Source: Escherichia coli
GTDB lineage: Bacteria; Pseudomonadota; Gammaproteobacteria; Enterobacterales; Enterobacteriaceae
Assembly (NCBI RefSeq): GCF_046105845.1
Contig: NZ_CP151004.1
Direction: 5' to 3' (one strand)
DNA: 64,000 bases
The position numbers and the translations under genes were made by a program. The notes below the pieces were generated by a model. It was not told the DNA's origin. It saw nothing but the letters and a program-made list of their open reading frames with translations, and searched no databases. Shown piece after piece: positions 58,400 to 58,859 of this stretch. Numbering within the stretch: the stretch's first letter is position 1; the number at the start of each line of letters is the position of its first letter.

Positions 58400-58454
58400 A
58401 CCTACGTTAACTCCGACCTACAAGTGAGCATAAACAATGAACAATTAGTTTATC

Positions 58455-58859
58455 TTATGCAAGTCGGTTGCAGGCGAAAAGTGGGTGATGCCAGACGTTA
58501 CGATGGTAATTCACTCCCTGTTCGCCGTTGGTAATAAACGCCCGCAGAGTTGACAGGTCTGGTTTGTCGTCACCTAACGCCACGACCACCACAAACACTT
58601 CACCTTTCATCGGGATAAAGGCCTGAGTACCCAGCGGATGACGTTCGAGTTCGTGAATGGTCAGCGGCAGATTCGCCGGTTGCGCGCGGTTAATGCTGAT
58701 AAGCGTACGGTCTTGCTCAAGAATCTCAACCAGCGCCAAATCGTGGTAACGCTCCACCAGGCCATTGTTAATATGGAAAAAATCCCGTTGCTGCGTTTCG
58801 ATTACATCGCCATAAGCACTAAAGGCTTCCTGACTTAACGGTAATACCTGAAGTTTCAT
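58455..58859 (-). CDS. allA: Ureidoglycolate lyase AllA; ORF is 134 aa, about 26 residues shorter at the C-terminus than the ~160 aa I recall for K-12
   Basis: [53 protein letters not shown]...[14 protein letters not shown] then stop at 58455. Confidence 0.75.

Follow-up and report, generated by a model that had tools for sequence, protein, structure and literature searches.

The gene for ureidoglycolate lyase, allA, in the window, by which we mean the whole 64,000-nucleotide stretch of Escherichia coli DNA that was analysed, has lost its 3' end through a deletion of 100 bp between two CGCCTG direct repeats, of apparent slipped-strand (microhomology-mediated) origin. We consider it highly likely that allA in the window is a genuine loss-of-function allele, produced by a recurrent CGCCTG-mediated deletion with a putative hairpin hot spot at its origin. 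In itself, the truncated allA is an ordinary pseudogene: the enzyme is well known, and PGAP has already marked the gene as a pseudogene in two genomes. What is new beyond a known pseudogene, and modestly interesting, is that the identical deletion occurs naturally as a recurrent hot-spot event for which a structural cause is plausible. Nothing relevant to this deletion or to allA pseudogenes of E. coli was found in the literature searched.

Structure of the allA Locus

The ATG-started allA frame occupies positions 58859 to 58455 on the minus strand and comprises 134 codons followed by TAA (ORF listing of the window), with the C-terminal end given in the original prediction. It lies between allS and allR, as expected of AllA in the allantoin cluster, and its residues 1–129 are native AllA according to the ORF, the Pfam match (Ureidogly_lyase, PF04115), and the alignment with annotated allA. 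The new stop codon (58455–58457, minus strand) lies within the hexamer TAAGAT (58452–58457), which is the −10-like half of a sigma-70-like match considered below. The spacer between this stop and the allR start codon (58399–58397, minus strand) is 55 bp long (58400–58454, minus strand; sequence and alignment), which is the length originally predicted. The reference-genome annotation gives allA 483 nt, corresponding to 160 aa, with 77 bp separating it from allR; this former allA–allR intergenic sequence is wholly kept in the window.

The neighbouring genes are intact. The allR gene (57584–58399, minus strand) codes for the IclR-type repressor of the allantoin regulon, 271 aa in length, as judged from the ORF and the annotation of the equivalent gene. 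The sRNA AllZ, which originates from the 3' end of allR, is left untouched by the deletion. On the other side of allA, the divergent allS–allA control region (58860–59088), in which AllR binds (PMC12535856), is the same as in the closest undeleted genome, and the allS gene (59089–60015, plus strand) codes for a LysR-type activator of 308 aa (ORF and annotation). The remaining allantoin cluster (40174–57584) contains only full-length ORFs, with lengths equal to those annotated in the ETEC1738 locus, namely gcl, hyi, glxR, allW, allB, ybbY, glxK, allE, allC, and allD, as well as allF/fdrA, allG/ylbE, allH/ylbF, and allK/ybcF. In the gap between allE and glxK there is an Rfam match to the enterobacterial sRNA STnc480 (48252–48318, minus strand, 84.9 bits).

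Several features outside the cluster were also recorded. The sok antitoxin RNA is matched twice in tandem and at full length (4676–4832 and 5180–5336, minus strand, 84 and 80 bits), which represents a duplicated hok/sok-type locus. Between mnmH and ybbP, Rfam matches were obtained to AgrB (dinQ antisense region; 61240–61328, minus strand) and to ES036 (61811–61853, plus strand); this interval has no RHS element in the window, unlike in the deletion carriers L006–L008 and L011–L013. The ybbP ORF of 697 aa at the edge of the window was considered as a further truncation and rejected, since the end of the window cuts this ORF and there is no upstream stop. At positions 19699–26852, the ORF sizes fit nfrB, nfrA, ybcH, and envY, adjoining a tRNA gene at 26779–26852. 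In K-12, the envY–tRNA site is occupied by the DLP12 prophage with appY and ompT, which, judging from ORF lengths, appear to be absent from the window.

Alignment of window positions 58350–58900 with ETEC1738 and one K-12-like strain revealed that exactly 100 bp are missing with respect to both references, and outside these 100 bp the region is collinear with them and base-for-base identical to ETEC1738. In the undeleted allele, the first CGCCTG is located at codons 128–130 of allA (TTC GCC TGG) and the second directly after the TGA stop codon (positions 1925–1930 and 2025–2030 of locus L001), and their start-to-start spacing equals the deleted length. The window retains one copy, at 58471–58476 (minus strand). 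Two direct repeats at the endpoints before the deletion and one copy after it are what a slipped-strand event leaves behind, and it is because of this retained copy that we assign the deletion to this class. The original prediction was therefore right in supposing a real small deletion or frameshift, and the 100-bp deletion between 6-bp direct repeats is in fact a frame-shifting one; the stretch proposed for the indel, 58455–58470, merely adjoins the junction.

As a result of the deletion, codons 130–160 (W130–A160) and the stop codon are lost, and five foreign residues, CNRLA, are gained. The latter are read out of frame from former allA–allR intergenic DNA (TGC AAC CGA CTT GCA, 58458–58472, minus strand; sequence read directly) up to the TAA. 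The predicted shortfall of about 26 codons holds as the difference between 134 and 160 aa but understates the damage, since 31 native residues are lost and five unrelated ones added.

Distribution of the Deletion in E. coli

The additional 100 bp are present in 5362 of 5426 complete E. coli genomes, where the region is matched in two pieces spanning 651 bp, and AllA homologues from about 20 genera all reach about 160–170 aa or more (160–177 aa). The idea that reference AllA proteins might also end at the position seen in the window, which the original prediction had allowed for, is thus contradicted both within the species and in other genera. A 60-mer centred on the junction was found in two of the 5426 complete genomes, ET650 (NZ_CP100936.1) and OkiPb01685 (NZ_AP042523.1), and in both of them PGAP describes allA as a pseudogene ("incomplete; missing C-terminus"). 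These two pseudogenes have the same 100-bp deletion and the same junction as the window, whereas their haplotypes are 131–156 SNPs away from it over 5.45 kb. ET650 also has an internal stop in allS and an IS1 between hyi and glxR (L003 4489–5415 and 9694–10391), while in the window the cluster is otherwise free of lesions.

The exact 134-aa product occurs on 152 public contigs in a collection of 15 billion proteins (NCBI, ENA, and Logan, human-gut metagenome assemblies included), and another allele, which differs by S14C and Q24K and likewise ends in CNRLA, occurs on 16 contigs, both counts combining clonal spread and independent events. The window and 16 other carriers were compared over 5451 shared bases extending from gcl to mnmH. 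These 17 carriers fall into 11 haplotype groups separated from one another by 26 SNPs or more over 5.45 kb, mostly by 60–200, and the junction is identical in all 11 carrier haplotype representatives examined. The complete genomes closest to the window have only 99.5% identity to it in this region and are all undeleted. For each of three carrier haplotypes, L005, L007, and L010, the complete genomes include undeleted counterparts with 100.0% identity over 6331 bp; between L010 and CFSAN061771 there are no mismatches besides the 100 bp. Because of these three pairs, the only reasonable reading of the haplotypes is that the identical deletion arose independently in many unrelated E. coli lineages.

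Proposed Sequence Basis of the Recurrence

Between the start codons of allA and allR, 35 pairs of direct repeats of at least 6 bp were found at distances of no more than 400 bp, and several of them are longer (7–8 bp) or closer together than the CGCCTG pair. We predicted 20 alternative deletions between 6–8-bp repeats on the same AllA allele and looked up their products by exact sequence in the same protein collection: 18 of the 20 were absent, one was present on two contigs, and one on a single contig, as compared with 152 for the product of the observed deletion.

The undeleted allele contains an inverted repeat placed at the endpoints of the deletion. Its first arm, GCAG-C-GCGTCAC (L001 1931–1942), lies directly after the first CGCCTG, and the pairing partner, GTGACGC-CTGC (L001 2021–2031), includes the second, giving an 11-bp stem with one bulge. 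The energy of this stem as single-stranded DNA is about −8 kcal/mol, the cost of the 78-nt loop included; when forced to hold it, the antisense strand folds at 0.7 kcal/mol and the sense strand at 2.2 kcal/mol above the minimum free energy. The CGCCTG pair forms the strongest duplex bridging the deletion endpoints, with −14.3 kcal/mol and rank 1 of 28 repeat pairs; for the second-ranked pair (−13.2 kcal/mol), the deletion product is not seen in nature. Conservation of the repeats and of the stem extends to K-12-like, EcN, O157, and other backgrounds.

The z-scores for single-strand folding of the whole segment were unremarkable (−0.67 and −0.81), and because no such score is significant, the case for the hairpin rests on its position and ranking and not on global stability. 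A 7-nt perfect inverted repeat is expected by chance somewhere in 260 bp, so that only the position of this one and its extension to 11 bp are notable.

Taken together, these data suggest a mutational hot spot, acting through hairpin-assisted replication slippage, as the cause of the recurrence. In such a scheme, the hairpin in single-stranded DNA would draw the two CGCCTG repeats together, and the juxtaposed repeats would favour slippage of the polymerase during replication, leading to loss of the 100 bp. Slipped mispairing between short direct repeats, helped by palindromes, is the classical model for deletions in lacI. The allA deletion resembles the lacI-type hot spots in having short direct repeats at the endpoints, one of which is kept, a bridging inverted repeat, and an identical event that recurs. 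It differs from them in that it comes from natural populations and not from a selected laboratory reporter, and in that the repeat is only 6 bp long.

Selection and Other Lesions of allA

The 100-bp deletion is one of several natural lesions of allA. A 77-aa C-terminal fragment of AllA starting from M84 (P0019) was found in 774 index blocks; at four loci (L020–L023), it is a by-product of differing upstream lesions, namely a 1-bp deletion and several nonsense changes. Since this fragment arises from different upstream lesions, allA is therefore often and independently inactivated in E. coli. A deletion of 5 bp (GGCAG, L001 1968–1972) results in a 142-aa AllA (P0003) found on 128 contigs. Like the 100-bp deletion, the 5-bp deletion, the nonsense changes, and the 1-bp frameshifts inactivate allA and leave allR and allS intact; the 5-bp deletion, however, is clonal, with 0–3 SNPs among the four loci fetched (L024–L027), whereas the 100-bp deletion is present in at least 11 haplotype groups. 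A 133-aa AllA of Salmonella (P0084; S. enterica, 76 contigs) was rejected as a parallel truncation because its deletion is internal and elsewhere in the protein, an in-frame gap at about residues 80–107 of E. coli AllA; it is a natural lesion in another genus. Other genes of the cluster, belonging to the glycerate branch or to its regulation, are also damaged in related genomes: ETEC1738, the closest complete relative of the window, has an internal stop in glxR (L015 26457–27335), and in L012 gcl is split in two (11366–13146). The number of other independent lesions suggests that selection on allA is weak in E. coli, so that such alleles would persist at low frequency.

The deletion also alters the sequence upstream of allR. 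Scans of the allA–allR junction for promoter and terminator consensus sequences gave nothing informative in either allele. With a relaxed hand-made scan, a single sigma-70-like match was obtained in the 200 nt preceding allR, namely GTGACG-17-TAAGAT, with 8 of 12 positions. Its −35-like hexamer GTGACG overlaps the allA stop codon and is deleted in the window, where no 8-of-12 match remains. This is weak evidence for a regulatory effect: if allR were really transcribed from this match, less repressor would also be expected in a strain with the deletion.

On this basis, the recurrence could be attributed to selection instead of a mutational hot spot. AllA converts ureidoglycolate to glyoxylate and urea, the latter being waste in urease-negative E. 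coli (PMC12535856, PMC11326118); the deletion would abolish this urea-wasting branch and at the same time remove the −35 region of the allR promoter, and the lower repressor level would derepress the allantoin regulon and yield more nitrogen and ATP through the oxamate branch. The energetics are in line with such a benefit, the oxamate branch giving 3 NH3 and +1 ATP as compared with 2 NH3 and −1 ATP, with urea wasted, for the glycerate branch, and allantoin consumption is about doubled in an allR mutant, which also forms much more oxamate (PMC12535856). The regulatory part depends on a sole 8-of-12 match that does lose its −35 hexamer but is weak, with a score under the cut-off that the scan tool itself applies, and no data on a transcription start were found to support it. 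Certain carrier lineages have spread over several samples, with no more than 1 SNP between any two of L004, L013, and L014, but the allele is rare among complete genomes, and in ET650, with its allS stop and IS1, and in L012, with its split gcl, the cluster shows decay and not tuning. Other microhomology deletions in allA are essentially unseen, which selection for this particular one could also explain; the many other allA knock-outs, on the other hand, are expected under relaxed selection. On balance, we find an origin of the recurrence in selection unlikely. The combined view, in which the deletion is recurrent, programmed by the quasi-palindromic sequence, and also adaptive, switching off the AllA branch, removing the allR −35 region, and derepressing the regulon in one step of rewiring, seems to us slightly more doubtful still. 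Hairpin-assisted slippage at a mutational hot spot remains our preferred explanation of the recurrence.

Effect of the Deletion on AllA

Compared with the common E. coli allele WP_000776388.1, residues 1–129 of the window protein are identical, and the promoter side and the position between allS and allR are the same; compared with full-length E. coli AllA in general, the protein lacks residues 130–160 and has five unrelated ones in their place. The 134-aa protein still matches PF04115 with 160.5 bits (E = 3.5e-47, cut-off 23), covering positions 3–133 of 162, versus 3–157 for the full-length protein, which leaves the domain incomplete. Six residues that are at least 90% conserved in 25 sequences (F136, D140, R141, G143, N146, and C147) are absent, and with them the C-terminal motif F..(V/I)DR(G/A)G.(D/N)NC. 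In the AlphaFold model of full-length AllA (pLDDT 92.5), the two longest strands, 134–141 and 148–159, belong to the lost part; the solved structures 1YQC, 1XSR, and 1XSQ match full-length AllA over residues 1–160.

With nearly invariant residues and the two longest beta-strands missing, the 134-aa AllA is very probably inactive, as judged from conservation and the structural model, and it is probably also unstable. That it is instead a functional, strain-specific short form of AllA is very unlikely: the frame is intact from the native ATG, the Pfam score is still high, and several submitters have deposited the 134-aa product as "ureidoglycolate hydrolase", but none of the full-length homologues from any genus ends near residue 130, six nearly invariant residues and the two longest strands of the fold are gone, the tail is translated intergenic DNA, and PGAP treats the gene as a pseudogene.

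Single Origin or Artefact

A single old deletion moved between backgrounds by homologous recombination would also place one junction in many haplotypes. The all region is mosaic in E. coli, its haplotypes are 1–3% apart, and about 200 bp at the junction (58332–58532) are identical in the four sequences compared in this respect, namely the window, the undeleted ETEC1738, ET650, and OkiPb01685. This identity does not extend to all carriers: L010 has SNPs of its own haplotype to both sides of the junction, at 9 and 23 bp from it, and L005 and L009 differ at positions 58448, 58515, and 58524, within 50 bp of it. In view of the undeleted counterparts that are identical to three carrier haplotypes over 6.3 kb, an imported tract would have to make do with fewer than about 30 bp of homology on its flanks. 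The 5-bp deletion leading to the 142-aa product serves as a control allele here, since its clonality indicates that the sampling method alone does not create polyphyly. A single origin is thus largely refuted, and we assign it a very small probability, in favour of independent deletions at the CGCCTG repeats.

Equally improbable is a sequencing or assembly artefact of the window's genome, an error that the original prediction had listed among its options and to which the absence of the window's exact haplotype among the fetched carriers might point; it is very unlikely because the identical junction recurs in two independently finished genomes, many drafts, and gut metagenome assemblies obtained by different groups and methods, while a 6-bp repeat is far too short for assembly collapse and the clean loss of exactly one repeat unit with its spacer is a biological signature.

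Implications for Allantoin Utilization

The oxamate branch, which begins with AllD, is the main anaerobic route of allantoin degradation, and glyoxylate is the inducer that releases AllR (PMC12535856, PMC11326118). Without AllA, ureidoglycolate would no longer be split for the glycerate branch and would have to pass through AllD into the oxamate branch. Glyoxylate, the inducer of AllR, would no longer be made from allantoin, and Gcl, GlxR, and GlxK would not be fed from this source. As the window has every other gene of the cluster at full length, the strain should still use allantoin nitrogen via the oxamate branch. In the genome annotation, allA is to be marked as a pseudogene, with no glyoxylate/urea branch expected and the oxamate branch kept. 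If the adaptive reading were true, all ureidoglycolate would be directed to the oxamate branch, with more nitrogen and ATP as a result.

The locus is a clean natural case of an identical non-point mutation arising many times, and homoplasy of this kind may lead astray any phylogeny or typing scheme in which each indel counts as a unique event; the locus is also a convenient natural test case for hairpin-assisted slippage. Added to the large number of other lesions in allA, the recurrent deletion suggests that many E. coli can do without the AllA step, or even bear a cost from it.
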